A stretch of DNA of 64,000 nt from the NCBI GenBank assembly GCA_030704615.1, contig CM060731.1, positions 10,478,001 to 10,542,000 of the forward strand, written 5' to 3'. The first letter of the stretch is position 1. The number at the start of each line of letters is the position of its first letter. The stretch comes from Takakia lepidozioides. Lineage: Eukaryota > Plantae > Bryophyta. Shown in pieces: positions 3,189 to 47,906 of this stretch. The notes below the pieces were generated by a model. It was not told the DNA's origin, did no database searches, and saw nothing but the letters and a program-made list of their open reading frames with translations. Position numbers and translations under genes: made by a program.

Positions 3189-3209
3189 TTTCCTCCTCCG
3201 CCACGCTCC
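3189..3209 (-). promoter_or_regulatory. Polypurine tract
   Basis: Minus strand reads GGAGCGTGGCGGAGGAGGAAA immediately before the LTR TG. Confidence 0.75.
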
Positions 3210-3249
3210 AAGGTTGGGTCCCCATCAACGCTTTCTTTCGCTTTTTGAG

Positions 3250-7802: not shown

Positions 7803-7843
7803 GATGAGGCCAATCCCAAGGACGATCGCGTACTAAACTCTAA

Positions 7844-7855
7844 GCTCTGATACCA
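7844..7855 (-). promoter_or_regulatory. Primer binding site (tRNA-iMet)
   Basis: Minus strand TGGTATCAGAGC, 2 bp inside the LTR end. Confidence 0.92.
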
Positions 7856-7857
7856 AG

Positions 7858-8238
7858 TGTCGCGCACCTCACTTCGGTAAGCTCCCCTTCAAGTCATAGT
7901 TACTCGCTTTGATGCGTGCGCCTGACTCCCAACCTGGCCGCCGGGCCAACTTGGAGCTTCGGCTCCTCACCGGGGCATAACGGTCCCCCCTTTTGTTCAC
8001 CCAAAGAACCCTCCACCGATTTGGAACCAGCGGGAATTCCCTTTGGTAGTTGGCAGTCCGGAACAGCTCCCCACTCTTTGGTCGCTTTCCGGCTCGCTCG
8101 CTTACTCACTAGTTTTGGTCACCAACGGGCTTGCACCGTTCTCGGGGTTACTACTCCCTATATATACTTCTGTAGCTGTCCGCGGGGGTTTCACAACCAG
8201 CCATGCCATTTTATGGCGAACCACCACGAAGACCCTCG
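7858..8238 (-). repeat. 5' LTR, truncated
   Basis: Matches 1593-1968 up to gaagaccctcg, then joins directly to a ParB-like exon. Confidence 0.88.
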
Positions 8239-11200
8239 GGAAGATGTTTCACGTTTGGGATGGGAACCACCGGTTGCTTGTATGGATGGCTGTTATTGGG
8301 AGGCTGCACTCATAGGAGGAAGAGTGGCATTACTCTGTTCGATCGATGGTGCTGGATTGTGAGGGGAACATGATGGGTCTTCTGACGGCAATGAATGATA
8401 TGAACATGTTGGTTTCTCATTCTACATGTTCCACTTATAGTTCCGTGGTTCTTTGATTAAAGTCCTTGAATTTCATTCTGACTTTCAGATATCATTCTGC
8501 AAAGGAACGAAGACATCGCATGTCAAAACGAGTCTGGTTCACACACTGTATAGGATACAAAGGATCGGGCAGATGCCCTTGACCAACTTCAAGACCATCA
8601 TTTCAGCAGAGACGTACAAGAAGTGCAAAAGCTCCAAGACATCGGAAACGTGGTACTCGTTGACACGTGAGGCTTTCATGGAGTACATGTATACGGTGAG
8701 ATACATCTTCCTTCATCTGCCTTTTCCATATTCCTGCTTCCACATGTTTGTTTCTGTTTGTTTCCCTCGCCCTTGGGTTGATGCAACTCTCGTGCATTCC
8801 CTTGCAGCAAGACATTGCAGATGCAGGGGAGCGTGGCAAACTGGAATACTACAGGTCAACCCCTGAGGAGAGAAGGACAGCAAAGGGGGTTGAGAGTCAC
8901 ATCCAAAAAGAGATGACCGCTACAAGAAGGACTATAATGAGTGCTTTTGTGAAGCAGTTGAGAATTGCCGACCCATCATTCGGATCGCAGTTTCTCCTGG
9001 AGATAAAAAACCATTATAACAAGCCAGGCAAGCCAAAGATGGCCCAGGAGAAGTTACACAAGTTGTCTACCGCCGTTGTGTCTTCAGAACAGAAGGTGAA
9101 GTGGCTACAGATATGGAACTCCGATCCCACAGTTAGGGATACCCACATGTTCCCCAGGCCGGAGAAAGAGAAGAAGACCCAGCATGTCATTCCTGTCAGT
9201 GACAATGTACTGGACACATGGCTTCACAAGGCCACTTACTGGAGCCAGGTGTGATGTCCTTTCCTGTGTCACTTTCTTTTCTCTTTTCCTGTCCTTCTCT
9301 TTCCATTGCCTCTGACATTCGCTGTGATTTTTTTTGGGTTCATTCTTGCATTTGAATTGTTTTGCAGTTGGAAGAAAGGGCACGGTCGGTTCTGCATACT
9401 CAGCTGGCTGACTATGGCATCGACATCACCGAAGGTCTCCTTCGAAGCATACATGAGGAAAAGGAGAGCCACAGTGTGGCACTCTTGTTTCTTTAGAGAG
9501 TTCAGCAAGGAGGGTGGCATCAGTCGAACACATGACCTTGACCAGCAAGAAAAATGAGAGGAAGCCTGGAAACGATGCCTTTACATGTGCACACCCTGGG
9601 CCGTTCAGGCTACTTAGTGTGCTGTGGTTGCAATGTACTGTGACGCATACAGTTTAAGGGGGTCTTCCTGGTGTGATGGAAAAGCTGAGATACAATAATT
9701 GCATTGCATAATGAGGCTGTCTCTGTTCCTGCAGGTACATAAAGTTTGTTCTCTTGGAAGAGAATTGCTTGGACAAACATCCAGATTTCGTGGACCTCTG
9801 GCTTGTCCCTGCTGGCAATCAGACCATGTTTACTACTGGGATCTTGCATGACTGGGGCCCAAACCATCTTTCTTCTTGTGGTTGGTATTTGGATTGCCCT
9901 CCTTCTGAGACCCCAGCTCCGGAGGTGTCTTTGAGGAGAGAGAATGAGCAAATTGCAGCCATTGCCGCAGCAACCGACCTCGACATTCATGAACGAAATT
10001 TGAGGACTCTTGCAGAGAAGGAGCCTCCCGCTCAGGATACCCCGGGTAGAGGTAGAAAGGCAAAGGGAAAAGATGTTGCTGGTGTTGTGGGGAAAGGAAG
10101 GGGTAGAGGGAAGGTGGCACAAGGGCAGGGAAGTGTTGCAGATATTGGCCCAGTGGTGCATGTCCAACAGACTCCACCGCATGGTAGGGGATCCGTGAGA
10201 AAGAACAAGGGGGTGGTTGATCCCAAGGACCCATACCATGCAGTGGAACATCCGACGAGGGTCATTCGCCCTACCAGGTTGGAGATGGCCAACGTCGGAT
10301 TCCTTGCCATGATGGAGTCCAAGAAATCTGATTACAAGGGCGAGCCATCACCAGTGTGGGAGAGGATTGTAGAGCTCCTCGGCACGGTGCGTGTTCTCTT
10401 TTGCTTCTTCTCTGCAGTGGGCATGGATCGTTTCAATCCTCTTGAGTATTCCATTGTAATTTTGTTTGCAGGCTAAAATGACCAAATCCTGGGTGAACGG
10501 GAAGGAGAAGCAATATGCAGCCGAACTCATAATCTTGGACATCCCTGATGGGTTGGCAGTCCCGGATGTCCCTCCATCAGGTGCTTGTCCGGGTTGGAAT
10601 GCTTTTGATGAGCGCTACTGGCGGTGGGTTTTCTCCTTTTGCAATTTTTTCCTGTCCGATGCAGGTGTTTTGGTGCTCATACAGTCCGCCGACGTTCGCT
10701 GTCGCCGTGCACTTGCCAGCTATTTGAAAGCCTCGGGCATGAGAGTCCTGAAGACATGGAATTGTGTGAACAGCATGTACCTTACGAAGGGGGATCGTCC
10801 GGGAGAGATGGTAAATTTGCCTTCTTCTTCCTCTTCTTGGTGGTTCTCGGATGGAGTTGTGTAGGTCGCTCGAACTCAAATGTAGGGGCCTGATTTTTGA
10901 AGCTTCTTAGTTCCTTCTGGATGTGTTGTTCGCAGACTCGTTTGTTTGAAGCTGTTTGTCTCGTCCGAGTGCATCCACCAACGACTCCGGCCGGCATTTC
11001 GGAGTTCGCCATCGCTCATGGGGGCAAGTTCATAGACGACAGGACAGATCCTCCCACGGATGACATGCACCAAACTACGTCGACAGCAACGTCTGCTTGC
11101 GAAGGGGGAATGGGGTTCCTTGGAGAGGGGCGAGGGAGAGGAGCCCGGCTTTCATTCAAACGATTGTGGAGTGCTGCACCTACACAGACGCCAGAGTTCT

Positions 11201-11913
11201 GGATTTGTCAATGGGCACAGGTTCGTCTCTTCAACATTCGGATTTCATGAGGTTTGATTGAGCTTGCACTTTCAGTACTTCCCACCGTTTCATATGTGTC
11301 TTCAATGTCTGCTTCCTTCATTCTATTCCACTGCAGGTGCTTCGTACCACGCTTGCAAGGCCAGTGCCCGACATCTCTTTGGGATTGAAGGGGATGCTGA
11401 GATTTACAAGAACCTCCTGATGGGTTTGGGTGGACACACTTCTCAAGTCCTTCCGAAGCCCCGTCCCGCTGATATTGATACAGGGGAGACTTCCGACAAG
11501 GAGTTGGACTCCGACTTTGCCTGTGAGTAAGTTCAACCTGTAGATGCTTGCATTGTTGTTTCAATATCAAGAATCACTCTTCTTGAGGCAAAGTTCACAT
11601 GGCAGACATCCTCTTCGTTGGACTTGTGTATTGCATATTGTGTTCTGAATGGGTTTTTGTCGACATGTGCAGGAGTCCACGTGCTTCCACTTGCCCTCCA
11701 GGGCTATCACACCTATTTGGACTTCTTTCCAGTCCTCCTCGGTCTTGCGTGCTACCTGTCTATGCGGAGGCACTCGCAACAAGCATGACCGTTCATGGCA
11801 CTCAGAGTCCACCCATCGACGGCCGTGGTAGAAGACGTGGTGTTGGGGCCAGAATCTTTGTGGATGACATAGCACAGGAGGTCGAGACTGATTCTGATGA
11901 CTGTGACACTTGA
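8239..11913 (+). pseudogene. Multi-exon ParB/Srx-like domain + beta-class N6-adenine/N4-cytosine DNA methyltransferase-like gene (5' truncated)
   Basis: GKMFHVWDGNHRLLVW at 8239-8286. ELIILDIPDG (motif IV-like, ~10523-10552) followed by W..F...LSDAGVLVLI. Then PWRGARERSPAFIQTIVECCTYTDARVLDLSMGTG / GT-AG intron 11221-11336 / ASYHACKASARHLFGIEGD, which parallels the HPTQKP..LI...T..GD.VLDPFMGSG.T..A....R..IGIE consensus. Exon boundaries are approximate. Confidence 0.8.
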
Positions 11914-12620
11914 TATGAAGTTTTCTTTTGGTTTTATTTGGGGCCAAATTTGAAATGGGATGGTTGTGTGTCTTTGTTGTCCTGTTTGCAATGTGTGCGT
12001 GGAATGCACATTAATGGGAACAAACTATTGTTGGAGATGGGGGTTGCATGGACTGTCCGGATTGTTCCTTCAATCTATTTAGTGTTTTCTGGACCTCACA
12101 GACTTGAGTGCATTGCAAAAACAAACAAACGACTTTGGTTCGTGTACAACATTCTCGCATCATTTGATCGTTGGTCTCCAAACCATTCCTGCTAGAAGAA
12201 TGGTTGGTGAATCCATCACGGTGAAGTCCACCTCATCAAAGAGCTGTGAGGTATTCTCAAATCTAATGAGCATCCATGATGCTCCCGCACATACCTGGCA
12301 TGTTCGCAAGGGTGGTGAGTAAGAAAAGATTTCGCAGGGTTCCGCTTTAGATCATGTCAGTGTGCACCTCCTCACGACGTACCCACATAAACTTGTGAGG
12401 GCTTGGTATGTTGATAACGTCGGCATGGATGCAATGGATACAATGGATGTAACATATCCACTCTGCATTCCCGGGAAATGGCTGATCAACCCGCAGAAAT
12501 AGGTGACACCCGCGGAAATAGGCCCTGTATGTATGCTGACGTGGCGTGAGCCTGTGCTGGGCTCACGATTTCCTGGGCTCACATGCTCACGCCTCCAGGC
12601 TCACGGAATAGCACCCCCCC
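8239..12620 (+). mobile_element. MULE-like element 0 (ParB-MTase arm, left part missing)
   Basis: Ends in gctcacggaatagcaccccccc (12599-12620), homologous to the ends at 19486 and 29425. Subterminal GCTCAC/GTGAGC repeats at 12545-12605. Confidence 0.72.
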
Positions 12621-12904: not shown

Positions 12905-13625
12905 ATAGAATTCCGGCGCCGGATTTCCATCCTGCAGGTAATTCGGAGCGCGGATGGATGGAAATCCAGCGCCGGATTTCCATCCGTCAGGTACGGCGGC
13001 GCGCAAAATTTCCGTCATGCAGGTAATTCGGAGAGCAGCAGGATGGAAATTCAGCGCCGAATTTCCATCCTGCCAGGTAGGGCGTCTCGCGAAATTTCCG
13101 TGACGCAGGTAATTCGGAGCCGGATGGATGGAAATCCGGCGCCGGATTTCCATCCTGCCAGGAAGGGCGGCGCGCGAAATTTCCGCCACGCAGGTAATTC
13201 GGAGCCGGATGGATGGAAATCCGGCGCCGGATTTCCATCCGCCAGGTTGGTCGGAGAGCGGATGGATGGAAATTCGGCGCCGGATTTCCATCCTGCCAGG
13301 AAGGGCGGCGCGCGAAATTCCCGCCACGCAGGTAATTCGGAGCGGATGGATGGAAGTCCGGCGCTCGATTTCCATCGCCAGGTTGGTCGGAGAGCGGATG
13401 GATGGAAATTCGGCGCCGAATTTCCATCTGGCAAGTAGGGCGGCGCGCAAAATTTCCGTCATGCAGGTAATTCGGAGCGGATCAGGATGGAAATTCGGTG
13501 CCGAATTTCCATCCTGCAAGTAATTCGAAGCCTGGATGGATGGAAATTCGGCGCCGAATTTCCATCCAGCAGGTAACTCGGATCGTTGGCGGATGGAAAT
13601 TCGGCGCCGAATTTCCATTCGCCAG
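12905..13625. repeat. Palindrome array A (ATGGAAATTCGGCGCCGAATTTCCAT-type), 53/85-bp units
   Basis: GGCGCC-like cores at 12915, 12968, 13053, 13138, 13223, 13276, 13360, 13412, 13497, 13550, 13603. Confidence 0.95.
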
Positions 13626-13787
13626 GTAAGTCGAAGCGCCGAATTACCTTCCTGCAGGTAATTCTGAGCGTGGACTTGTTTTTCGGAGAAAAACAAACTA
13701 AACTGTTAGTTTTGTGGCTGAAGTTCACTTTTAGACACGTTTTTCATGGAATCCTTGACTGCTAGAGGGAAATCCGAGCGGCCTCGA

Positions 13788-14840
13788 ACGGAAATTCGGC
13801 GCCGTTTTTCCATCCTGGGAGGTTTTTATATCGTCCAGTTTTGGGCCTCACCACCCGACCGGACTTCTTTTGAGGGGTCCCGGATGGAAATTTGGCGGCG
13901 AATTTCCATCCGGGGGATGGTCTCTGTCGGACAGGTGCCGGCCTCTACGCCCGAGGCGACTTCGTCCGGGCGTCCCTTGTTGGATATTCGGTGCCGAATT
14001 TCCGTCCGGGGGTTGAAATGTGACGGCCAGGTGCCGGCCTCTCCCCCCTCCCCGACTGCATCCAGACTGCCCCGCACGGAAATTCGGCGCCGTTTTTTCC
14101 ATCCTGGGAGGTTTTTATATCGTCCAGTTTTGGGCCTCACCACCCGACCGGACTTCCTTTGAGGGGGCCCGGATGGAAATTCGGCGCCGAATTTCCATCC
14201 GGGGGATGGTCTTTGTCGGATAGGTGCCGGCCTCTCCGCCCGAGGCAACTTCGTCCGGGCGTCCCCTGTTGGATATTCGGTGCCGAATTTCCGTCCGGGG
14301 GTTGAAATGTGACGGCCAGGTGCCGGCCTCTCCCCCCTCCCCGACTGCATCCGAACGGCCCCGGATGGAAATTCGGCGCCGATTTCCCATCTGGGGAGGT
14401 TTTTATGTCGGCCAGTTTTCGGCCTGCCCCCCCGACATGACTTCGTTTGGGGGGGCCCGGATGGAAATTCGGCGCCGAATCTCCATCCAGGGGATGCTCT
14501 CTGTCGAACACGCGCCGGCCTCTACGCCCGAGGCGACTTCATCCAGGCTTCCCCTGTTTGGATATTCGGTGCCGAATTTCCGTCCGGGGGTTGTAATGTG
14601 AGCGCCAGGTGGCGGCCTTTCCCCCGAGCCGACTGCATCCGAACGGCCTCGGATGGAAATTATGTCAGCCAGTTTTCGGCCTGACCCCCCGACACGACTT
14701 CCTTTGGGGGGATCCGAATGGAAATTCGGCGCTGAATTTCCATCCGGGGGTTGTTCTCTGTCGGACAGGTTCCAGCCTCTCTACCCGAGGCGACTTCATA
14801 CGTGCGGCCCCTGCTGGATATTCGGTGCCGAATTTTCATC
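13788..14840. repeat. Palindrome array B, 96-bp units in a ~289-bp higher-order repeat
   Basis: Cores at 13798, 13894, 13990, 14086, 14183, 14279, 14375, 14471, 14568, 14728, 14824. Spacer sequences recur every third unit. Confidence 0.95.
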
Positions 14841-15142
14841 CGGGGGTAGTAATGTGACGGCACGGTGCCGGCTTCTCCCCTTCAGCCGACATCATCCGGA
14901 CGGCCCCCCACTTTCTGACTGCATACCGTTTGCAGTTATTGCGCAAAGACCAGGGGCCGCATTCCTGAGACAAGGTTCATTAACACTCTGACTGTGGATT
15001 TTTGAGATAGTTGGCTCCTTGGATTTGGATCAGGCTTTGTCGCTCGGACAAATCGGCACCGCATTCCTTCCCATCGCTGCATCCCCCTTCTACCAGGGAG
15101 CTTGCCCCACGCCATTCTGGGAGTCTTGTGTGCACATCTCAC

Positions 15143-18100
15143 ATGGCAGAAAACCCGAGCGCTACAGTGTACTGCCCTCCTCACGAGCATAGAGCTTCAT
15201 TTCCATGCAGAGGGGACATCTGCCGGGTGATGGAGAAATATCTGTGCGTTCGATACCACCTGAAACCGGGGTCGGTTTTTTTGGAGGAGGAAAGGAAGGA
15301 CTCAAACGGCGTTGTTGTCGAGAGTATTGTTGTGCTCCACGACGATTTCGGCGATGGCAGGGAATGGCGAGTTCCACCATCGGACAATGTCATATACAGG
15401 GCTGTTGGGGACTTCATTTGCCCGCCAAATGCACCTTCTATCCTGGCGCCTTCCACGAAACAATCCGCGAATCAGAGAGTGGCTACCTCAAAGAGAGAAG
15501 TCCGCAACGAAGTAAATCCAGAGCCGAACCCATCCATGAAGACGAGCGAGAACCGGGTTGTTCACAACCTGTCCGACTCAGACGAGGTCATGGAAGTTCC
15601 GAGGTCGTCCTGGAGATCAGGCAAGTCCTCAATGGACGTCAGTGGACGAGGGAGTCATATTCCCAGCACGAGCACCGCAGTTCGATCTATTCTTGAAATT
15701 CTGCGAGGGCTTCACATGGAGGGACATCGCTCGGAGCTGGCCGGGCTGGACTACAACAAGTTTGCAATTAAATCGGTTACATGCCTTCCCGCAGACGTCG
15801 ACGGTAATATCTTCTTTGAGTTCCCTCCTCGGACGGACTACTCAAGGGCGTCCGGAATGTTGACAGATATGGATAGAAAACATGATGGTCATCCTTGGTG
15901 CGTCACCAAAACCACCAGCATGAAGATGCTCGATGGTGTGCGGGTGCGCTACGTTGTTTGTGCGGGCGCGTTGCGGTGTTTCTCCCCAACTTGCTTCCAT
16001 TTTAAATCCAGAGGTCACAGGAACGAGACCGATTGGACAGGCACAGCTCATCAACCATTTCGTGCTCAGGAGAAGGTTCCGAACTCCACATTTAAGTGTG
16101 CGCATTGCAAAGAACCACCACACTGCATGTCTATTTGTAATGCCAAGCAGTTCTATGTGTTGCACTGTTTCCCTGACCTCACCCGAGCTTACATACACGT
16201 TGGTTCCCATTGTCACAAATTGGCAAGGGGGAACTCGCGGGAGGCTGCCCACGAGGCAGAGCAGCTCGTTCAGGAGGAGGTTAAGTTGAGACCGGGTACC
16301 AAACCCAAACAGATACAGCTCCAAGCCGCCCATAAGATGGCCTTGGCTTGAATTATGTCGGAAGACGGCTCCGATAGAGTTCCTCTCAATGAGAAGGAAA
16401 TGGAGGCATTGCTGGAGTCGGTGTCCCACGTATGTTCACCGAATGTGCGAAACCACATTGTCTCATGCAAACAGAAAATTGGGCGTGGCTCGGATATGCA
16501 CTCCATTCTGGAGGTGAAGCGACGATGTGGATATGACTACATTCATGGAAGTAGGTTTCCAGGACAAGGGAGTGAGGCAGATCGTTGTTTCGTATTCAAA
16601 ATGTCCACGTGTGGACCTGGCAGCAGCGTCGAACTGGTCGACAGGATGACGAGTGGGGACTTGTCAAACAGTTGGGTCATGTTCGACCATATCAAGCGAA
16701 TTACAAATCACCAGTGGGTGACAATGGGTGCACATGTCTACGACACCCACTGCAGGATGCTAATGACAATTGCTATTTGTGAGATGAAAGGAGAGGACAC
16801 ACAATCGGAGATGCTTCTTTGGCAGGGAATAAACGAACAGATGGCCAAGGCGGGATTGCCCCCTCCCAATTTCCGTGGTTTCATGGCGGACAACGCACAA
16901 GCAAATTGGGCTGCCATCCGAAGGGTGTACGGGCAAGACCCCAATGTTCCCATGGAAGGCAATGAGAGATCTTGTGGGTTCCATTTTCTGTAGAGCCTTT
17001 CGCAGTACACAACCAGGCTCGTGGCGCCATATTTCAGAGAGGAGCACCGTTCCATGTGTCTTGCGTGGAAGCGCGCTCCCACCTTGGATGATGCAGAGAC
17101 ACAGTTTGCATGTATATGGGCTTGGTGGACATCGTCAGGTGCTGTAAGGAAATCAGACGAGGGAGCAATGGTCAGTTGGCTAGCATGGTGACATTATCGT
17201 TTCCTCCAGTTCGGCGACTATATGCGGGAGGTGAGTTGCACGAATTCGCGTCCCGTTGAATATTATTCTTGGCATTATTTGTAACTTGCTTGTAACCTCA
17301 ACATGTGCTTGTGCAGGAAATGTGTCTCGACTCCGACACCGACATGCCCACGACAAACATGGCCAAATCAGTGCATTCTTCCTGGCGTGCCTCCTCTGCT
17401 GCGCATCTGGTGGACATCCTCACTGCCACAACGGAGGACATTGTGAAGTCAATTATGCAGCAATGCAGGTACAACGAGTTCTTGAAATGGAAACAGTGGG
17501 GCTTGGGGCTGGACAGGCAGGAAATGCTGATGCGGACTGCCTCCAGATCGAAGAATCCTCAAAAGTGGGCAGCGGCCTTGCGAGAGGGCCTTCGGGACAC
17601 GCCATTCCTTCGAAGAGGCCAACATTCGGAAGGAGATGTTCATACCCGTCCAGTGAGACGAAGACTTGACGAGGCACCTGGCGGGGAAGAGGATTCATGG
17701 CGAGCTGACAAGAATATTCGCACGCTCCCTCGTGGTCCCGTGATGTTGCCCGAGGAGGTCTTGTCGAGCACCACAAGTCCTGCACGTTCAAGATCGTCAT
17801 CTCCTTTGAGCACAGGGCACGTGCCCGAGGAACATAACGAGCCATCTGTAGTAACGCAGTACAACATACCCATTGTGGAGACAAGAGTGTCGGAGTCACA
17901 GTGGAGAATTGTAAGGACATTGCCGGCATTTTGAGGGAAGTGTTGCGCCATTCGGGTGGGTACGAGAGCACGCTGTGGTGAGATGATTCGGAGGAACCCA
18001 CACGGTGCTGTACCTGCACCTTGTTTCAGCGGCAGATTTTTGACTCCCACATTTGCTCATGCCACAACGCAGACGTTTTGATTCTGTAGGCACGACATAA

Positions 18101-18690
18101 TGACCTATGTATTTGGCAAGCCCAAGTACGGGATTCAGGGAATGCCGGAGCCTCCGGGCGTCTGGCCTGTTGCACCGGGTTGCAGCCTCTCTCAGAATGA
18201 GGCGGATGCTCTATCTGCAGCAGGATTTTGAATGGTGCAACGCACAGATGTCCCGGCCCACGCATTTCCAGTTCCTCAGACCCAGCCATTGCAGACTGCT
18301 CGGTCCAGTAGAGACGGATTGGACAATTCTGCACATCCCATAATGCGATTCGGAAGAGTGAAGAGACGACACCCTCCCAACAAGTTGAATGAGACTCGGA
18401 TTGCCAATGCTCTTGGGATGGCTTGCACTATTCAGAGCTCCGTGGACGTACCTCCACCCGGCCTTGGGCGTGTTTATCGGACGATTGAAGTGGAGCCGAC
18501 TTGCAATTGTACGGACTTCTCGTTGATGGAAGCAAAGAAGGGTTCAAAGTATTATCCGTGCAAGCATCTGTATTACATTTACCTGAAGAGGTTGAGGATG
18601 AACGTGACTATTGATGACTTTATTCATGCACCGGCGTTGAGCGTGAATGAGCTGCACAAACTCCTCCTTAGGGATTCCAGAAATCATTGA
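15143..18690 (+). pseudogene. Mutator-like transposase with N-terminal GCM/WRKY-like Zn domain and C-terminal SWIM finger; intron 17231-17316; premature stops
   Basis: W..T...CAGALRC...C...CxxC...C...HVGSHCH; WVMFDH (D1); FMADNAQANW..RRVY (D2); CGFHF; TTNMA(K)SVH (E region, here K); CNC..F...PCKH SWIM. In-frame stops at 16349, 16991, ~17189, 17932 and ~18079. Confidence 0.88.
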
Positions 18691-18847
18691 TGGGGCAAAG
18701 GGAATCCTCCATATGGATATTTTCAATTGCATTTTCATGTATCAGACTTTTTTTTTGCAGTGTAATGAAATGCACCCCAAAACTCCTGGAATGAGGCAAT
18801 ATTCCATTCAAACTGAGATCCAACAGAAGCAGTTGTGGGGCCATTTC

Positions 18848-19242
18848 TGGAAAAATGGCGCCAAATTTCTCTATTTTGGGCCGAAAACTGGCTAAGTCCC
18901 AACATGCATTGGTACCCATGTGTCTGGAAAAATGGCGCCGAATTTCCCTATTTTGGGCCGAAAACTGGCTAAGTCCGAACATGCTCGGGAACGATGTCTG
19001 GAAAAATGGCGCCGAATTTCCAGTTACATGGCCCAGAACTGCCCAACATCTGTGCAATCCCCGGTACCATGTACCGAAATTCGGCGCCACATTTCCAAAT
19101 TTTGGGCTTACACACCTGTCATGAGGGGACCTATAGCCGCGGAATTCGGCACCATTTTTCGCCAGAGAGACTTATTACCGCGAAATACGTCGCGATTCTT
19201 TCCGGTTACGGACCCTATTACCGCGAAATTCAGCGCCATTTT
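18848..19242. repeat. Palindrome array C (subterminal)
   Basis: Cores at 18857, 18934, 19008, 19083, 19148, 19232. Confidence 0.85.
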
Positions 19243-19663
19243 TGCACATGTCGCTGGGAATTGGCATGAGCGGAAGACGAAATATCATGAGCACAACTCT
19301 CAAAACTACAATTTCCCCTTCAAGGTGCCGAATAATATATTTGTTTTTTCTGACACATTCCATTAAATTAATGTTTTATAATGTTTTTTATTTTCGAAAT
19401 TTGTATTTCTGCTCATGAAAACCGATTGTCTTGCTACTCCGCTCATGCCGCTCATGCCGCTCATGCTCATGAAATAGCTAACCTCCTCTCTGTTACCCTG
19501 CCATGGAAAAAAAAAAAAAAAAAACAACATGAAAATATGATACAAAAACAACCAAATTTCGACACAGCAATCCAATTTCCAGTTCATAGAGTGCATGACA
19601 GTCAAGAACATTGTCTATTTCGGCGCCGCAATAGGCAGTACACAAGGATGTAGTTGTATACTT

Positions 19664-20545
19664 ACAGATTTATATCCGCCATGGCACCCTTCAGCAGTCC
19701 TCTGTCCCTCACGTCCACCTTCACAACAATGCAGTCCACCATGTAATGCCAATTGATATCTTGCGGATGCATTTCAGCAATGTACTCTGTCCAGGCAAGC
19801 ATCCTGTGGTTCCCGTCCCAAACGAAGAACATCTTCCCTGCCATGTGTGCGAATGTGGGATTAGTCTTCAGAGAGGCTTCAAACTCGGCATTTACAGTGT
19901 GCCAGTGGGGGCTCCAATTCTGAAGCTCGACCTCTGCAGTGGGGCCCCTTGTGACACCGTGGTCATTCTCAATGGAAACGTAGAATACTGCCGACCCCCG
20001 TCTGTACCCCTCTCTGAAGTTGTGCTTCAGTCAATCGATGTCCCCTGGCAGTGCTTGTCTTACAACTGGAAGGCTAACCATGCGACACAAAGGAACTTTG
20101 AGGTTCTCCGGATACACCATGGAGCCCAAAACGCGGCCTATGTTGCTATGAGTCTCTACCAGGAACCTGTTTGCTGCTATGTTCATGTCTCGTGCGCTCA
20201 TGAGTATACCTGCCATTAGTTTCTTACTTCTATCACCTCTCTCACTTCCCTCACCCCTCTCACCAGCCTGTCTACTGTCCTGGAGGTTTTGCTCCTCCGC
20301 AAGCTCCAGCAGGTTTTGATCGTCGTCAAGTCGCACCACGTTGTCGTCATCTGCTTCTGTCAGCTCAATGGGCCGCCCTTCTCCAGATCCGAGTCTCCAG
20401 CGGCCTCCACCGCATCCGTGTTTTCTGAAACTGCCTGCAAACCCAATATCTCCGCTTCCAGTCTCCCAAGTGGTTGTACTGGCGAAGCCATAGGCTCTTT
20501 CTGCTTCCTCGGCTTCCGGACTCTAGGTGGGCTTTTCTGAGGCAA
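19664..20545 (-). pseudogene. ParB/Srx-like domain gene, 5' exon(s) (paralog of the gene at 8239)
   Basis: Read through a CGA>TGA stop at 20031-33: VPLCRMVSLPVVRQALPGDID*LKHNFREGYRRGSAVFYVS...GKMFFVWDGNHRMLAW...AMADIN, then a GTAAGT donor at the same position as the GT at 8408. Further upstream exons probably extend to ~20930. Confidence 0.82.
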
Positions 20546-21184
20546 TTTCTGAGGTGTTGAATGAGGAGTTGTCTACCTCGATGCACTTCCACCTTGCGAG
20601 CGCAGCACCCGGGCAGGAGTATCCAAAAGTGACTGTGTTGGCTCGCCCCCATGTGATCCCTCTCCAGCTCCCATGTCAAACAAACAGGAAAACATGACAC
20701 ACTGCACGCAAAAAAAAAGGTATAAAAGGAATAGTGCGTATGGAGTGCTTCACATCCGCGAAGCATGAATCTCTCACTGGTGGACGATCCAAGTCTCCGG
20801 ATAACGAGGTCTGCATTTCTTGCATGAGACGGAGCTTAAGACGTGTCGTCGGTGGCTTCCCAAAATCCCGCGTCCTCCTTCTCTGCGCCGGAATCGCCTG
20901 ACCTTCTATAAACTCTATGCTATCACTATGTTGCATAAGGAGAGGAAACGCAGAAGAATGTCACTGCAGAAGGGCAAGGAGCGAGAGAGCGAAGCGGTGG
21001 AACATGCAACCACTGTGCACGAGCAGATGCGTAAGCAGCCACGTCTCCCGAAGCGTTGCCACCGTCCACCACTTTCTGCTGTATGGGTATGAAGAGATTG
21101 CGACCCTTGACACGTTCGCACGGATGAAGTCGGCTGGAATACGACGCGTGCCTGTTCAAGCCACCAGTAGAAGACGCTTTATCC

Positions 21185-22610
21185 CAATTGCGGCGCCGAA
21201 ATACCGTTCCGTTCACCGGATGCTGTTCCCGGACCAGCCGGCATTGAATGAACTATCCACACATCATGAAACCCAACCGCCATGAAATTCCCCTGCCTAC
21301 CGACATTCAACAGTCAGGTCATCAGCGGACGGATGAATTTCGGCGCCGCAATTCATCGCTTCCCCAGTCCTCATCCGTCATGAGCAAACCTGTCAGTCGG
21401 ATATCGGAGCCGGAATTAATTCCGGGACAGTGGAGACGGCTGCACTTGGGCACATTTCATCCATATTTCGACGCCGAAATTCATTAAGAATATCTCCGTC
21501 CGCGCGGAGACGAGGTGAAATCATCCATATTTCGGCGCCGAAATACATCCAGCGCGAAGACTAAATCGGCACCATGCTACGCTTTGCCGCCATCATTGCC
21601 CCTCACGGTTGCTGTCCATGCCTGTTGGACTTGCCATGTATGGACTGTTTAGTATATTTTCGGCGCCGAAATTATACTTTATGTGCGGCAACGTCCTGTA
21701 CGAAAAATGACCACTTAATGGATACTGTCAGTTTCAAATGAAAACAACGGCTAAAATGCAATTAATTTTCCCCCAACATGAAAAAATATCCCCTTTCGTC
21801 ATTGGATAACGGCCTTTTGAAAAACATAAGGGGTTGAATGTGCCGATTTCTCCATTTAATGCAGAATATTCGTGTTATCTTTGTCTGAATGGGTTATTTC
21901 AAACAAATTTCGGAACCTTACATCATCCAGAAGCAAGAAGTAAGTGTCGGGTTCGGACGAATTTCGGCGCCGAAATTCATCCGTCGCATAGAAAATGTAT
22001 TATTAGAGTTACCCTTTGCGGACAGTAAGGATGAATTTCGGCGCCGAAATTCATTGCTCGCGAAGAAAAAAGAAAATTTGAAGGGAGGACTTTGGATGAA
22101 TTTCGGCGCCGAAATTCATCTGTCGCAAGGAAAAATAAAAATGAAGGGAGGACTTCAGATGAATTTTGGCGCCGAAATTCATCCAACGTCGTCCCTCCAA
22201 CAATTTTTTTCCCATGCGAACGATGAATTTCGGCGCTGAAATTTATCTCTACTGTCGATTCAGAATTACTGTCATTCGGATGTCGGCACCGAAATCCGGA
22301 CACGTGGTGAAGCATGACTGTAATCACGAACACATTCATCAGTATTTCGGCGCCGAAATTCATCCCTTATGTGCAGAGACAATTTCATGAAGAACATGTT
22401 CATCTGAATTTCGGCACCGAAATCCATCTGTCGGGTGCTTGCTCAGTTTCATGAGGTGAACAAATTTCGATTTCTGTCGCCAGAATTCATTCCGTGGTTC
22501 CAAATCTGTTGCATGACAGAGATATTCATCCAGATTTCGGTGCCGAAATTCATGAGAAGGCCTGATTTATTGTAGCCCAACTGGTGGTACATCGCAATTC
22601 AGGCACCCAA
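21185..22610. repeat. Palindrome array D (GATGAATTTCGGCGCCGAAATTCATC), between the divergent genes
   Basis: Cores at 21342, 21406, 21470, 21534, 21662, 21912, 21966, 22040, 22105, 22168, 22232, 22285, 22349, 22413, 22476, 22539, 22602. Confidence 0.93.
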
Positions 22611-22800
22611 TATCCAATGTGAACTTGCTGTGGTCATCCGTATTTGTAACGTACGTTACACACCTTCATCCATACGTGCACTGATCACCCATCCTGTTGG
22701 ATACAGAATCCTCCATAAAATAATTGTGGTATTATGTAGGACACACTCTTCTCATTGCAGGACTTCGCTGCGGAGCGTACCGAGAGTTGCAGTCTTCAAC

Positions 22801-25800
22801 ATGGACTCCCGTGTTTGGGTAAACGTGTACTTCCATCCTGATTATCTGAAAGCTAAAATACCCTGCGACCAAGGATTTGCAATTGTCACTGAGCAGTACT
22901 TGTGTGTGAAGTTCGGGCTCCGCCCTGGAACGGTGTTTTTGAAAGAGGAGACGAAGGATGCTTATGGAAATTTTCTGGAAAGTGCCTTCATTCTGCATGC
23001 AAATTTCGGAAAGGGCAAAGATTGGCGGCTCCCAGCTTCTGAATCCATCCGGTACAGTGCAATTGGTAAAATCATGCCTAAAGAGTTCCCACGCTGGAAC
23101 TTGGTTGATCCTCCTTCCACAAGAGGGTCTGGCGTGCAAGATGTGAAGTCTATCATGAAGGATGTGGGCACCTCTTCACAAGCAGAGAAGCCCAAACATG
23201 TGAAAAGGGAAATCGAGGAAAACAGGGAAACAGTCGTCCACGACTTATCCAGTGACGATGAAGACTGTATGGTCCTTCCATCGTATGTTTCGAAGTCGTC
23301 CGTCACTAGTAGTGTTCAGAAGTCGGTAAACAATGAGCACACACCCTCCGACTCAACTTCCGTCCGCTCAGTAATCGACATATTGTGGAGGATGAAGACA
23401 ACGGGTTCCCGCTCCAGTGACCTTCTTAGGCGATTACGACAAAACTCCAATCCATTCTGTGGAAACTTTGCCTGAAGTTGTGGATGGGAATGTTATCTAC
23501 AAGTTCCCTCAAGTACCGGCAAGCGTAGGCCCAGACGGCATGCTGACAGGAATTAACAGGAAACATGACGACCACCCTTGGTGTGTCACCAAAACTTCAT
23601 CGTCCAACCTGGGTGATGGAGTTCGAGTGAGATATGTATTGTGTGCTGGGCATCTTAAATGTTCTCAAGCACATGTTACCACTACACGAGCAAAGGCACC
23701 CGGAATGAGACAGACTGGATTGGCAATTTGTCGACCTCATTTTGGCCTCAAGGTAGAGTTCCTGCAGGGACGTTCAAGTGTGCCCATTGCAACGCAGCCC
23801 CTACGTGTATGGCAGTGTGCAACGCCAAGCAGTACTACGTCGGGACCGTCGGCCCAACGTGCACGAGAGCATGCATTCTCATCGGAAAGCATGACCACCC
23901 CGTCGCCAGAGGCAATTGCAGAGTCGCTTTTCAACAAGCCCACGATATTATCAAGGAGGAGGTGAGGTTGAGGCCGGGAGCAAAAAGCAGATACAGCTCG
24001 CATCCCACTACAATAGATCGCGGTAGTTATGACTGCCAAACCGTGGTAGTCATGGTTTTCATGACTTTGACCATGACTGCACCATGTTTTTACATGAAAT
24101 TGACCTCCTGCAGTCATTCATACGACTGTAGTCATATGAACGACTATCTAAATAGTCGTCTGTATGACTACATGGCTCCGGAATGGGCGGAAGGCTGGTC
24201 AACGACAATTGACCAGATTTAGCTCACCATTCATAGTCATTTCCATGACTACAATGTACATGGATGAGGTTACATAGTCATGATGACTACTAGGGATTTT
24301 GTAATTTGGTGTGTATAATACAATTAAAACACCATATGATTATATGAATGACTAATGGGTGTATTGGGTAACAGGTAGTGAACTATAATTCTTATAATAA
24401 AGAGGTTGTAGGTTCAAACTCCTCTAAGTACAATCAAATGGATAAGATGGCCTTAGGGTTAGTAGGCGAGCTAGGGATAGCACGTGGTACCCTAGATGGA
24501 CTGCCACATGGTTTTTTCATTATTATAAAATGCATTATGCCACGTGGCACAATGCGGTGCGACACGGCGTTTGACACATGTTTTTATTTTGTTAGTTTTT
24601 TTTTAATTTAATTTAATTTTTTAAATCAATTGCGCCTCGCCACGTGGCGCGGCAACGGCGGCTGCAGTATGGTATATATGACTGCAGTGAGAGATATCAC
24701 TTGGTTCATATGACTGTAGTCATCCGGACCGTACCATCATGTACTCATTGTATTGACTTGGTTTGCTCGACTTAAAGTCATAGAAGTCATATGTACCGTT
24801 TATGACTGCAGAATAGTCATATATACAGTCATAAATACCGCGATATGTTGTAGTATCCGTACATAGAATTGCAATTGGCAGAATAATGTCGGAGGACGGA
24901 AGCACAAGAGAGAAGCTGGGTGAGGGGGACATGAAGGAGCTGCTGGAAGCTGTCTCCCATGTGTGCAGCCCCAATGTCAGGAACCACATTGTCGGCTGCA
25001 AGAAACGAATCGGAAGAGGATCAGACATGTAGTCCATCTTGGAAGTGAAGCGCACATGCGGCTACGACTTTATCCAGGGCAGCTTTTTTCCCGGTCAAGG
25101 CTCGGAGACGGACATGTGCTTCATATTTAAGATGTCAACGTGCAAGCTGGGGAGCGGTGTCGATTTGGTGAAGCAGATGACCAGTGGAGACCTCTCAAAT
25201 TGCTGGGTCATGTTCGACCACATCAGACAAATTACCAACCACGATTTGGTGACAATGGGGGCACATGTATATGACCCACATTGCAGAAAATTGATGACCA
25301 TTGCTATCTGCAAAATGAAAGGAGAAGACACAGATTCGGAGTTGCATATGTGGCGCGGAATTAATGAGCAAATGGCGAGAGCGAAGTTGCCCCCTCCCGA
25401 TTTTAGGGGCTTCATGGCTGACAATGCCCAGGCGAACTGGGTTGCAGTGAGAAGGGTATATGGGGACGACCCAAAGACTCCAATGGAAGGTAAGGAGAGA
25501 TCTTGCGGGTTTCACTTCATGCAGAGTTTGACGCAAAATACAAAAAGGATCGTGGCGTCACGCCACCGGCATGATCATATCAGTATGTGCCTTGCGTGGA
25601 AAAATGCGAATTCCATCGACGAGGCGGAGACCGAGTTTGCAACCATATGCGTCTGGTGGGTGTCTTCAGGGGCAGTGGATGTGAAAGATCAGCCAGAACT
25701 GCAAACGTGGCTTGCATGGTGGCACTATAGATTCCGCCAGTTTGGAGACTACATGAGACAGGTAACACATTTTGTACTTGACAATTGTTCTGTTTTGTGC

Positions 25801-27272
25801 TACGACATTCTCCACAATGAGTGACATTTCTTTAATTTCCTTCAACAAGACATGAGCTTGGATTTCACGGATATGCCGACGACGAACATGGCCGAATCGG
25901 TGCACTCTTCCTGGCGTGCCTCCTCTGCGGCACATCTCGTTGACATGTTGACAGCAACAACAGAAGATATTGTGAGGGCCATCATACAACAATCTCGTTA
26001 CTACCAGTTTCCGGGAGGAAAGCAATGGGGTATCGGACCAGGCAGGCAGGAGATGCTGATGAGGGCGGCGCATCGTTCGACCGATCCCCAAAAATGGACT
26101 GCTGCATTGCGGGAAACAATAAAGTCAACGCAGTTACATAGTCGGGGGAACTGCCTGGAGGGCGATGTCCGTAGCTGGCCGGTGAAGAGAAGAATTGAGG
26201 ACATGCCAGGAGGCGACGGTGATTCATGGAGATCAGATATGAATATCCGCACTCAACCTTGGGGCGCAACGATATTGCGTCCCACGCCTCCTCCCAGCAT
26301 GACTCGTACCCCCTCTCCTGCAGCATCCATGGAATCGCTGCCAGACTCGGGACAACATGCCGAGGATGAGCATGCTGCTCCTATTATCCTTACCCAATAC
26401 AACATTCCAATCGTGGAGCGAGATGTGTCGGCCTCGCAATGGAGAATTGCACGGACCCGTCCGTCATTTCGTGGCAAATGTTGTGCTGTTCGTGTCGACA
26501 CCAACCAGAGATGCAATGAGATGATTCGGAGGAGCCCGCAGGGCGGTGTGCCTGACCCTTGCTTCACAGGGAGATTTGTGTGCGCAAAGTTTGTGGAGGC
26601 CACACTGAAGGAGTTTTGGTTCTGCAGGCACGACATCATGTCGTGTGTGTTTGGCAGGCCCAAGTATGGTGTACAAGGCATGCCTGAACCCCCAGCAGTC
26701 TGGCCTGTGGCAACTCGTACAGATCTTACCCTGGAGGAGGCAGACGCTTTAGGAAGTGCAGGGTTTCGACTGGTGGAGAGGCAGACATTCCACAAAATCC
26801 AATTCCTAGTCGTCATCCTCCTCCCACGAGAAGCTCTTCGCCCCGCATACAGGTGGGTGACCCCACGGCTTGGCCCACCCATCGGTGGGGGAAATTGAAA
26901 AGACGGCGGCCACCAACAAAGGCGAACGACACCAGGATGACCAACGCTCTTGCAATGCCCTGCATAGTGCAAGGTTGCAGGGATGTTCCTCACCCCGGGA
27001 TAGGGCGCATATTTCAGTTGTCAACAGCCGGGTCTGCTGCGCGCAGTGTCGTGTATGCAATCACGGTTTCTCAGTACCCAGCTTGCAACTGTGAGGACTT
27101 CCTTGTTATGGAATCGAAGAATGCAGCATACGTCCCCTGCAAACAACTTTATTACATTTTTCTGAAGCACATGAGTTGCATATCCGCAGTGGACGTCTTC
27201 ATCCATGCTCCAACACTAAGCTTTAACGAGCTGCACAAGGCCCTACGGCAGGATACAGGTCGGACTGCTTGA
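22801..27272 (+). pseudogene. Second GCM-like/MULE/SWIM transposase (diverged paralog), interrupted by a CACTA insertion
   Basis: Colinear with 15143-18690: HPWCVTKT, CAGHLKC, WVMFDH, FMADNAQANW, CGFHF, TTNMAESVH, CNCEDF..PCK. Intron donor at 25762 is in the same position as 17231. Confidence 0.88.
24006..24855. mobile_element. Non-autonomous CACTA (En/Spm) element
   Basis: TIRs CACTACAATAGATCGCGG / ccgcgatatgttgtagta; 3-bp TSD tcc (24003-05, 24856-58); ATGACT/AGTCAT subterminal repeats. Removing it rejoins the transposase colinearly with copy 1. Confidence 0.92.
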
Positions 27273-27958
27273 CATTCCACATTCGGGAAGGAGAAAGTGG
27301 CAATTATATTACATTCATCTTCTTGCACCCTATTTTTTTGTGAGGAATTATACACTTGGTGGTGCCGCACTGCCATGGCTCTAGGTGCATTTTGGTGCCG
27401 CAATACATGAGAATGTGGTTTTTGGCCGTGAATGGCATGGGCATGTTTTTTTTTATTTTGGTTATGTCTATAAATGGATCCGAGGAAAGCATACATTGTG
27501 TGGAGATACACGGACATTGTGGCCTATTTCAGCGCCGTTATTGGTCTATATACTGCATAATGCTTCCTTGTTACTGCTCTTCATTCAATTTGTGGTGATT
27601 TCGCAGCCCATCCTGGCATTTTCGTCCACCTTTATGAGAAGACTCCGATTTGCTACCAATACATCGTCAGTGTTCTGCAAATGTGATGCCTTTACAGGAT
27701 TGCTAGTTCTGTGTCCCAGTGGGAAGGGTCCTACTGCACATTCCAGCATTTGCATACTGCACCTTGTGCACATAGCAATCCATACGACAAAGGACACGTC
27801 CCAGCATACTGGTAGTGAATTGCAAAAAACCTTAACAGAAGATTATCCAAGCATGTATATTCCCCATATGGCACAGGGAAGCTACTTGATTTCTGAATCA
27901 AAATGTATGTGCCATGAGTGTCGGCGAGTCGAAACATGTCTACTCTAGCATGCAAGAC

Positions 27959-28510
27959 CTATGGTCCCCTCGCCCAAGAAGAAGGAACTCGAACTGGCCT
28001 CTCAAGGACCTCCTGAGTGACTAGGTGCCGATATTTGAACAAAATGTCAGCGGTTTCTGTCGCCCGGTTGAAACTAACGAGGATGTCGTGTTTATCGATA
28101 GTGCCCCCTTTGTAGAAGGACATTTTCACAATGGGCCCTGTGTTCCTCTCCTCCTCCTCCTCATAACTGAAGAGAATGTCCCCATTTTCCGAGCCAGTCC
28201 GTCCACGCGTGAAGTTTTCACCTATGCACTCATCATACGTCCACTCGCAACAGTTCCAGCGATACAGCAACGCTGTGCGTGATCTGTTCGGCTCCCACTC
28301 AAGCGGAAAGTCCAGGTCCATGATGCGCAGGAACCACCTGCTCCTCAGCCGGGGTCCAGGAGAATCGTGCAATCCTGGAAGAAACTCCATTGCTCTCAGC
28401 TGGACAAGTCGAGGATCGTCCCTGTAAACATCTAGGAAGACAATGATGTCGTCTGCTTTCGGGACAATGACTCCCGTCTGGCGTCGATAGATGTGATTCG
28501 GGCACAACAT
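27959..28510 (-). CDS. Hypothetical protein (~183 aa), cargo ORF of element 2
   Basis: Uninterrupted ORF of globular composition between the transposase and the subterminal array; no recognisable family. Confidence 0.45.
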   Translation of the reverse strand: MLCPNHIYRRQTGVIVPKADDIIVFLDVYRDDPRLVQLRAMEFLPGLHDSPGPRLRSRWFLRIMDLDFPLEWEPNRSRTALLYRWNCCEWTYDECIGENFTRGRTGSENGDILFSYEEEEERNTGPIVKMSFYKGGTIDKHDILVSFNRATETADILFKYRHLVTQEVLERPVRVPSSWARGP

Positions 28511-28749
28511 GGCCTCACGACACAACAAGAACACAGAGCAGGGAGGAGATGGGCACAGCAGAGAAGAGTGAAGAGCAAAATGAGAGCGAGGCCGGCGGAA
28601 GAGGGATATATCATTGTTGCACTGCCAATGTCGTATGCAGCAGAACTTCTATTTCCTCCGACATGTGTGCTTTTATTAGACAAATCCGCACCAGTTTCAG
28701 GACAGTTTGCAAAACTCCCTCACCGTAAGGCGGATATTTGCTCTCCGGA

Positions 28750-29157
28750 GCCCAATTTCGGCGCCGTTATTGGTTGCACTCCCCAGCCTTCAGCCGGATA
28801 TTTGGTTTCCGGACCCCAATTTCAGCGCCGTTATCGGCTGCACTCTGGTGGCTTCAGCCGAGTATTTGGTTTCCGGGGCCCAATTTCGGCGCCGTTATTG
28901 GCTGCACTCCGGAGGCTTCAGCCGGGTATTTGGTTGGCGGAGCCCAATTTCGGCACCGTTATTGGCTTCACTCCCGAGCCTTCAGCCGGCTATTTCTTTT
29001 CTTGTGCCCAATTACGGTGCCGTTATACCCAACCATCCTGCACTTCTGCAACAGTACTATCCACGGTTATAGGTCGCCATTACGTTTTCGGAGTCTGCAA
29101 ACCCGGATCCTAATTCCGCTTGTGTCCCTTCCTCTGGGGTAATTTCGGTGCCGTTAT
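28750..29157. repeat. Palindrome array E, 64-bp tandem units (AATTTCGGCGCCGTTATT)
   Basis: Cores at 28760, 28824, 28888, 28952, 29016, 29147. Confidence 0.92.
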
Positions 29158-29524
29158 TGCCCAGAATTCAGTTTTTCTATGACCTGGCCTGGCGGTCCAT
29201 GAGCTTGGGCTCCAAGTCATGAGCGGACACTGGTACTTATGAGCGGAGTGCTTCCAGCATGAGCGCGGAAATCTTCGAAAACCTTCTCTTCTTATACTAC
29301 TTTCGATTATTTTATAGTTTTGGGCCCGAAAAAAATCTGTCGAAATTCCAAGTGTGTTACTTGGCGGCTCATGGGTGAGCCATGCCCGCTCATGAGCTCA
29401 TGAGCTCATGGAATAGCAACCCCCCTTGCTGCTCTGGGGATTGCCTAAGGGTCAAGGTCTCGTGCAAGTAAGCTGACAAGCAGTTCTGATCCTCATAATG
29501 CAAGACTTCAGTGAGTTCCACGGA

Positions 29525-45842: not shown

Positions 45843-47906
<2,064 letters not shown>

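Follow-up and report, generated by a model that had tools for sequence, protein, structure and literature searches.

Palindrome arrays spaced at whole helical turns in nested Mutator-like transposons of Takakia lepidozioides, with a ParB-like cargo protein as candidate binder

Two nested, high-copy, Mutator-like transposons (elements 1 and 2) in the genome of Takakia lepidozioides carry, confined to their non-coding parts, arrays of a palindrome whose copies are spaced at whole turns of the DNA helix. The elements lie in a stretch of 64,000 nucleotides (GenBank assembly GCA_030704615.1, contig CM060731.1, positions 10,478,001 to 10,542,000 of the forward strand), which was analysed at its full length and is called the window below; positions are counted from its first letter. 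The data show that 42 of the 45 spacings of at most 160 bp between neighbouring palindromes deviate by no more than 1.5 bp from a multiple of 10.66 bp, where 29% of the integers from 40 to 160 would match by chance. This bears out a preliminary description of the same DNA, in which the spacings were said to fall at integer helical turns, and the result survives the merging of the spacings into eight classes. The lattice is real and statistically supported; it is also local, weaker than the raw counts and not universal in related elements.

A symmetric 20-bp weight matrix identifies 52 palindrome sites of at least 12 bits in the window (core TTCGGCGCCGAA; range 12912-29155), compared with a mean of 0.43 sites per window in 30 shuffled windows. 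The spacing lists also include two weaker sites that are in register (13357, 9.9 bits; 22473, 9.4 bits). Array A (12912..13611; 11 sites) belongs to element 1 and is built from units of 53 and 85 bp (five and eight turns), with core-to-core spacings of 53, 85, 85, 85, 53, 84, 52, 85, 53 and 53 bp. A scan for half-sites adds one site only, at 13632, which is 32 bp past the last site of array A. Array B (13795..14832; 11 sites) is upstream of the element 1 transposase gene (transposase 1) and has units of 96-97 bp (nine turns), the spacings being 96, 96, 96, 97, 96, 96, 96, 97, 160 and 96 bp. Its units group into a 289-bp super-repeat of three units each, and the 160-bp gap would be two units shortened by 32 bp. 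Downstream of transposase 1 there is array C (18854..19240; six sites; spacings 77, 74, 75, 65 and 84 bp), the last two sites of which are adjoined by a subterminal CCRCGG-ATAGG motif (19142 and 19226, minus strand). The ParB gene of element 2 has a single palindrome in an intron (19619..19630), near the insertion point of element 1.

Array D (21189..22547; 16 sites) lies between the divergent ParB-like and transposase genes of element 2. Its spacings are 150, 64, 64, 64, 128, 304, 74, 65, 63, 64, 53, 64, 64, 63 and 63 bp, and the spacers are mostly unalignable. A pair of palindromes downstream of transposase 2 (27391..27539; sites 27391 and 27528) is 137 bp apart and off the lattice. Array E (28757..29155; six sites) has spacings of 64, 64, 64, 64 and 131 bp, with a subterminal CCACGG-ATAGG motif at 29061 in its region. 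Further gaps are 195 bp (array A to array B) and 231 bp (array B to a lone site), and the smallest palindrome spacing in the window is 52 bp. Most of the spacings listed in the preliminary description are found again; those of 150, 304, 131, 195, 231 and 137 bp had been left out, and array D has one spacing of 53 bp rather than several.

Fitted through the origin, the 13 in-phase spacing classes give a period of 10.66 bp; when an intercept is allowed, the slope is 10.71 ± 0.06 and the intercept -0.4 ± 0.5. Individual arrays give periods of 10.58-10.74 bp, and in array D1 the phase is held over 470 bp (R = 1.0 at 10.68). The spacings that miss the lattice are 77, 131 and 137 bp. Because the arrays have been copied in tandem and most spacings are duplicates of a few units, the number of independent values is about eight, not 45. 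Merging across elements leaves the classes 53, 64, 74.5, 85, 96, 149.5, 131 and 137 bp, the first five of which all lie no more than 0.3 bp from the lattice. For these eight classes p is 0.003 when the null is uniform lengths and periods from 10.2 to 11.0 are scanned, and p = 0.006 (periods 10-11.2) or p = 0.04 (any period from 7 to 16) against a jitter null. With one value per class and element (14 values of at most 160 bp) p is 0.0002, and 13 values that include variants of 45 and 61 bp and three units from relatives give p = 0.003.

In other genomic copies the 84-bp spacing reads 85 bp in 3400 of 6472 depth units and the 150-bp spacing reads 149 bp in 3038 of 4599, both nearer to the lattice; these copy-variant figures are contig depths for the best-supported rows, and three of the four runs come from one sample, which may be the source of the DNA itself. 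As an informal control, the other tandem periods of the window (41, 89, 126 and 303 bp) are farther from the lattice. Two other accounts of the lengths were rejected. A single ancestral unit of 32 bp has 64, 96, 128 and 160 bp as multiples but not 53, 74.5 and 85 bp, and phasing by 21-nt small RNAs fails by arithmetic, 53, 74 and 96 being half-multiples.

The spacers had been described as unrelated, and this is correct only in part. Most spacers of array D cannot be aligned, but three of them are direct or inverted copies of each other, those of arrays B and C align significantly (via a motif that, by eye, reads as inverted), and TCATGA or GCATGA is present at +38/+39 from the core in five 63-65-bp spacers of arrays C and D. 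The length of 63-65 bp is retained although most such spacers no longer align. The (T/G)CATGA sequence occurs in 63-65-bp units of both elements (19119, 21378, 22385, 22449 and 22511); it is similar to the terminal GCTCATGA repeats and might be a binding site of a second protein. The observed/expected ratio of CpG is 0.93 in the spacers, against 0.52-0.53 in host DNA; the transposase genes (0.73-0.81) and the ParB genes (0.54-0.56) lie between. Of the 162 core CpG positions in the window, 127 are intact.

A scan of metagenome contigs gave 127 confirmed related stretches, of which the best 80 were kept, falling into 60 non-redundant clusters; one locus (L010) was added back for the palindrome and end-motif scans. 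Five loci carry pieces of a ParB-methyltransferase gene (L027, L049, L050, L074 and L075). The ParB gene is opposite to the transposase in element 2 and in L027, L049, L050 and L075, while the single match in L074 is on the same strand. The weight matrix of the window detects no palindrome cluster in the 80 related loci. All five ParB-positive loci are AT-rich and decayed, with nine of 75 core CpG positions intact, and a scan tolerant of CpG decay exposed their palindromes, which have the same core as in the window and different arms. A fixed scan for TCGGCGCCGA, in which CpG decay was allowed and symmetric arms were required, then finds 12 sites in the ParB-positive loci, with all five represented (87 kb, 0.4 sites expected). 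The 56 ParB-negative loci have one site, in a coding region (222 kb, 0.6 expected), and the nine of them with at least 2.5 kb of flank have none. In L027, L049 and L074 the clusters are inside the ParB-methyltransferase gene, beside the methyltransferase exon, and L027 has a further cluster 0.7-1.4 kb upstream of the ParB part. None of the relatives' palindrome clusters is 3' of the transposase.

The motifs at the element ends are distributed differently. CCRCRGHHATAGG with GCTCA repeats is present at all three element ends in the window and 3' of the transposase in seven relatives that lack the palindrome; there is one further, remote match (L061), and shuffled sequences gave six matches in all. 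On sequence grounds, the cis-elements are split into end motifs that are family-wide and internal palindromes that appear tied to the cargo gene. This strengthens the case for the ParB-like protein as the binder, which the preliminary description had named as the obvious candidate: the palindrome follows the ParB-methyltransferase gene, and other motifs mark the ends of the transposase elements. Three of the five gaps in the upstream cluster of L027 (127, 195, 107, 134 and 128 bp) are on the lattice, and a locus of another subfamily (L005) has a TGGCCGAAC-type array with spacings of 84, 85, 84, 142, 85, 88, 85 and 85 bp. The corresponding units in relatives, 127.5 and 84.7 bp, equal 12 and eight turns. 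Other arrays near related transposases are mostly off the lattice (L010, 56, 47 and 103 bp; L057, 72 bp; L035, 16-38 bp; L050, 30 and 60 bp; L061, 54 and 41 bp); these do not contain the palindrome, only that of L010 is assignable to an element, and they were kept out of the counts. Viral contigs have no match to the exact 20-bp pattern or to the transposase alignment. Just 3' of the transposase, three relatives have a hairpin (approximately L001 2622-2646, L002 3504-3528 and L056 2020-2044) with arms GT(A/G)GTG and CAC(T/C)AC, a fixed loop and, in L001, a change on both sides, which is possibly an RNA element.

The first domain of the cargo protein has 388 relatives at E values of at most 0.001. 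The top Foldseek match of the model of one relative, P0106, is Noc (E = 0.014), and its top eight VIA rows are SerK, KorB, PadC, Srx, SbnI, a Pnob8-like ParB-N domain, Atu1540 and Srx (Z 5.5-7.1; 79-98 residues aligned; root mean square deviation 2.7-3.8), the next, unrelated row having a Z of 4.4. The model stops before the later exons of the gene. On these scores, which are middling but consistent, the predicted structure is that of a divergent ParB/Srx fold. The GxxR motif reads DGNHR in both window copies. Of 150 homologues listed, many of them fragments, 75 also have DGNHR as their first match to D-G-x-x-R. Behind this domain the order of motifs is IV followed by I, as in beta-class N6-adenine/N4-cytosine (N6A/N4C) methyltransferases: LIILDIPDG (exon 10478-10795), which we take to be motif IV, precedes VLDLSMGTG (around 11200), presumably the S-adenosylmethionine-binding motif I. 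All five versions of the catalytic (D/N/S)PP(Y/F/W) motif that were seen are degenerate: it reads DIPD in the window, DVPS, NVPS or EVLR in three relatives that have decayed, and DFPI in P0147. The gene is therefore classed as methyltransferase-like only.

The transposases were compared in the same way. Of 366 candidates, 30 are homologues of the core (36-53% identity), and these keep the D, D and CxxH positions. The model of one homologue, P0004 (mean pLDDT 72.6), has as its best match in the PDB the ISCth4 transposase (E = 9e-4, ranks 1-4), which we take to belong to the IS256/Mutator group. It also matches the GCM-DNA complex 1odh (E = 0.004) and, weakly, the DIX, PB1 and TDP-43 N-terminal domains (E = 0.025-0.16). 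The DIX, PB1 and TDP-43 N-terminal domains polymerise, and the model suggests that the N-terminal domain of the transposases (15143-15440 and 22801-23100) may self-associate. A SWIM zinc finger (PF04434) is below its cut-off (E = 0.002; 18 bits against 19.6). The GCM1-type (WRKY-GCM1) fold is tied to Mutator-like element transposases in the available text of an earlier study (PMC1702500). From the modelled IS256/Mutator-fold DDE core and WRKY-GCM1-type N-terminal domain, we read the elements as Mutator-like.

We favour, with slightly better than even confidence, the explanation that dimers of the ParB-fold protein read the palindrome and cooperate on one face of the helix, with self-regulation or protection from silencing as the likely purpose. 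A two-fold symmetric protein would read a two-fold symmetric site, in the manner of the bacterial ParB, Noc and KorB. The arrays would grow by duplication of units that contain a site, and only units of five to 15 whole turns would persist because dimers in phase cooperate, as has been proposed for the 43-bp repeats of sopC; the 52-bp minimum spacing would fit a large protein footprint. The transposase would use the family-wide GCTCA and CCRCGG-ATAGG end motifs instead. With its catalytic motif degenerate in all copies seen, the methyltransferase-like half may bind or shield DNA rather than methylate it. The most speculative step is that the assembly would keep the divergent promoters and the CpG-rich sites unsilenced, as VANC does for VANDAL elements. 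A tentative extension, which we consider doubtful, is that land-plant Mutator-like elements use a domesticated bacterial parS/ParB system, in which a nucleotide-gated ParB clamp fused to a dead methyltransferase loads on the phased lattice, spreads over the element and masks CpG from host methylation. The centromere- or partition-type role raised in the preliminary description finds no support here; the position of the arrays fits a regulatory or anti-silencing role better. No ParA ATPase was matched among the 23 open reading frames (ORFs) covered by a general Pfam scan, which was not a search aimed at ParA.

Several observations count against phased binding by the ParB-like protein. When the long gaps of 195, 231 and 304 bp are added, the harshest set of values gives p = 0.07 and 0.42, and this loss of significance indicates that the lattice is local to the clusters. 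The commonest array in relatives (L027, L049 and L074) has a unit of 50-51 bp, or 4.7-4.8 turns, the upstream gaps of 195 and 134 bp in L027 are off the lattice, and relatives alone reach only p = 0.047 (three units). Joints between contigs imply variants of 45 and 61 bp, which are also off the lattice. The proposal of dimer sites held in phase, which had been part of the preliminary description, gains from the quantisation that survives merging and loses from the 51-bp array and the 45- and 61-bp variants. The five loci with the ParB gene, which are long and decayed, probably represent only two families, and many negatives are short contigs; this kinship and the unequal lengths mean that Fisher values overstate the association of palindrome and ParB gene. 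The visible 4.4 kb of a third element in the window (element X, described below), which carries a ParB-methyltransferase gene, has no palindrome of at least 12 bits by the window matrix, and the left part of element 1, where such a gene might lie, is beyond the window. No helix-turn-helix domain is recognised behind the ParB fold, where the following helices match nothing specific; the cargo protein has no Pfam match, and PDB-sequence and longer-homologue searches gave it no name. Finally, 33 of the 162 core CpG positions in the window are deaminated, from which it follows that the palindrome sites have been methylated at times, and an unrelated CACTA insert is also CpG-rich (observed/expected 0.89), which makes the CpG retention of the spacers weak evidence of protection.

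The transposase itself might bind the arrays, its GCM-like domain reading half-sites and its DIX/PB1-like domain polymerising head to tail. Polymerisation would favour sites in phase, and the transposase would be its own transcriptional activator. The domain matches of the P0004 model are consistent with this, both transposase genes of the window are flanked by arrays and two sites of array C adjoin the subterminal motif. However, in the seven related loci that have the subterminal motif 3' of the transposase, the palindrome is missing from that position, and the relatives' palindromes track the ParB gene. The available text on AtMu1 bears on both sides: its transposase alone binds and hypomethylates its element, but the binding is located at the terminal inverted repeats (10.64898/2026.08.24.746577). 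We regard binding of the arrays by the transposase as the main rival account, possible but doubtful. It is rather unlikely, in our view, that phase was never under selection and that a few lucky ancestral duplications, or a chromatin-linked bias in end points, were followed by tandem amplification. Most of the 45 spacings do copy a few units, a 64-bp unit is common to both elements, and the harshest test and the off-lattice units of relatives are as such an origin would have them. Against it, the five short classes lie within 0.3 bp of the lattice, no single unit generates them all, the 63-65-bp length has outlasted the alignability of the spacers and the other tandem periods of the window come less close.

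Some sites extend to inverted repeats of 30-36 bp and fold well (z = -5.6 for a site of array B and -8.0 for a site of L027), which would suit DNA or RNA hairpins; host-factor sites or nucleosome positioning could likewise take the place of binding by an element protein. Sites of arrays C and E, however, fold at chance level (z = -1.6 and -0.8) and keep their spacing, a hairpin does not need helical phase, and it is the arms that vary between families while the core is constant. We think such readings very unlikely. Array E lies directly 5' of an orphan ORF of element 2 (27959..28504, minus strand; 181 aa), which might be the binder as a VANC-like accessory protein. The ORF has no homologue in the Pfam scan, in the 60 non-redundant related loci, which include the palindrome carriers, or in protein searches, and we consider this role extremely unlikely. 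Binding by the ParB-fold cargo protein remains the explanation that we prefer.

The three DNA transposons of the window (X, 1 and 2) are of one family, are nested within 8239-29425 and lie in land-plant DNA with pentatricopeptide repeat (PPR) genes, a polyubiquitin-type repeat and a Gypsy retroelement. The window holds only one end of each, consisting of GCTCA repeats, G(A)AATAGC and eight more bases, and these finish at 12620, 19486 and 29425. From gene orientation we infer that the ends of element X and element 2 are the two inverted termini. The gene of element X (8239..11540, plus strand) contains introns, encodes a ParB and methyltransferase-like protein (motif IV reads DIPDG and is followed by VLDLSMGTG) and is the only near-complete ParB-methyltransferase gene of the window. 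Its 5' side is cut by a Gypsy long terminal repeat (LTR). The retroelement (1-8238), inserted in the ParB part of the gene, has a duplicated internal stretch (5-1592 and 4078-5675) and LTR-like copies at 1593-1968 and 7858-8238. The end of element X (12475..12620, plus strand) has CCCGCRGAAATAGG twice, GCTCA repeats and GAATAGC with eight bases. Element X sits inside element 1, and contigs of other element 1 copies differ to the left of 12621.

Transposase 1 (15143..18690, plus strand) is a broken copy with one intron, which we place near 17233-17318. By its sequence and the fold of homologue P0004 it has a DIX/PB1-like N-terminal domain, a GCM-like zinc domain, a Mutator/IS256-like DDE core and a possible SWIM-like finger. 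The right end of element 1 (19439..19486, plus strand) has GCTCATG repeats and G(A)AATAGC with eight bases, and similar ends occur in L014 and L071. We infer that element 1 was inserted in the ParB gene of element 2, which it cuts within an intron. The 5' part of this ParB-like gene (19689..20835, minus strand; 5' limit approximate) has the DGNHR motif and one in-frame stop and diverges from transposase 2 (22801..27272, plus strand). Transposase 2 is also broken, has 64% DNA identity to that of element 1 over the core and is interrupted by a CACTA-type insert (24006-24855). The insert is non-autonomous, with the start CACTACAA, an inverted right end, TCC on both sides and subterminal ATGACT repeats. 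The right end of element 2 (29360..29425, plus strand) consists of GCTCATG repeats and GAATAGC with eight bases. By depth and variant tables, both families are present in many copies, and the depth of element 1 is about 10 times that of element 2. One contig joins 19485 (element 1 end) to 21010, in the promoter region of element 2 and 180 bp before array D; together with the nesting in the window, this joint hints that the elements insert into each other near arrays. Elsewhere the window has a host polyubiquitin-type gene (45848-47869), identified from its sequence of 228-bp repeats, and one or more PPR genes (56870-58490).

ParB-domain genes in DNA transposons have been reported in algae. Plavaka elements (EnSpm) of Bostrychia have a ParB-domain accessory gene, PAG3, with tandem inverted-repeat arrays adjacent to it. 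The PAG3 product has been proposed to bind and modify the element that carries it, and the same paper mentions homologous accessory genes in Chondrus Mutator elements; the words 'helical' and 'spacing' are absent from the main text, to which the supplements could add (10.1101/2025.02.11.637652). Inverted-repeat arrays are beside the ParB gene here too (array D; L027, L049 and L074). PAG3, however, joins ParB to a 2-oxoglutarate-dependent oxygenase in a red-algal EnSpm element, whereas ParB is joined to a methyltransferase-like part in a land-plant Mutator-like element here. In Ectocarpus, Sola1-1_Ec32 has a gene with ParB-like and N4C/N6A methyltransferase parts on the strand opposite to the transposase, for which self-binding and modification have been proposed; 'palindrom' and 'periodic' do not occur in that main text (PMC12477816). 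By description, the elements resemble both in having a ParB-domain gene within a DNA transposon and opposite to the transposase; they differ from Sola1-1_Ec32, which has a Sola transposase and a brown-algal host, and their catalytic motif is degenerate. A different group of methyltransferases fused to ParB-HTH is mentioned only for chlorophytes and chytrids in the available text of PMC4738411, and ParB is not mentioned in the available part of a preprint on N4-methylcytosine in Marchantia (10.1101/2021.02.12.428880). Among listings of the open literature, and in the available text of the papers cited here, no report of a helical lattice or of a land-plant Mutator version came up.

In sopC the 43-bp repeat is four turns long and it is proposed that SopB dimers line up on one face, according to the part of the source available (PMC3177203). 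The likeness lies in palindromic sites at whole helical turns; the unit of sopC is of a single fixed length and its role is plasmid partition, with a ParA ATPase as partner, in contrast with mixed units of five to 15 turns in a eukaryotic transposon. VANC binds tandem motifs in the non-coding parts of VANDAL elements and removes methylation, as stated in the available text of PMC5735166. Those motifs are 8-9 bp long, non-palindromic and variable between families in the texts available (PMC5735166, PMC10398659), and 'helical', 'spacing' and 'periodic' are absent from that of PMC10398659. Here, by contrast, the core is a palindrome and is kept between elements with transposases of about 45% identity. 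For the VANC family the comparison is indirect, through Pfam scans in which the cargo protein and the orphan ORF have no match. In the text available, the algal proposals of self-binding ParB cargo give no site geometry or biochemical test. From a land-plant family with many copies, the window adds to them a specific site, a rule for its spacing (n x 10.66 bp) and an argument from co-occurrence. If the favoured explanation is true, plant transposons would have a second route, after VANC, to mark and protect themselves, borrowed from bacterial chromosome-segregation proteins. Were the clamp true as well, it would be a eukaryotic sliding-clamp form of anti-silencing in which distant plant hosts share one core sequence, and it would offer a portable means of holding chosen DNA unmethylated. 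The elements join the emerging class of ParB-cargo transposons as a variant.

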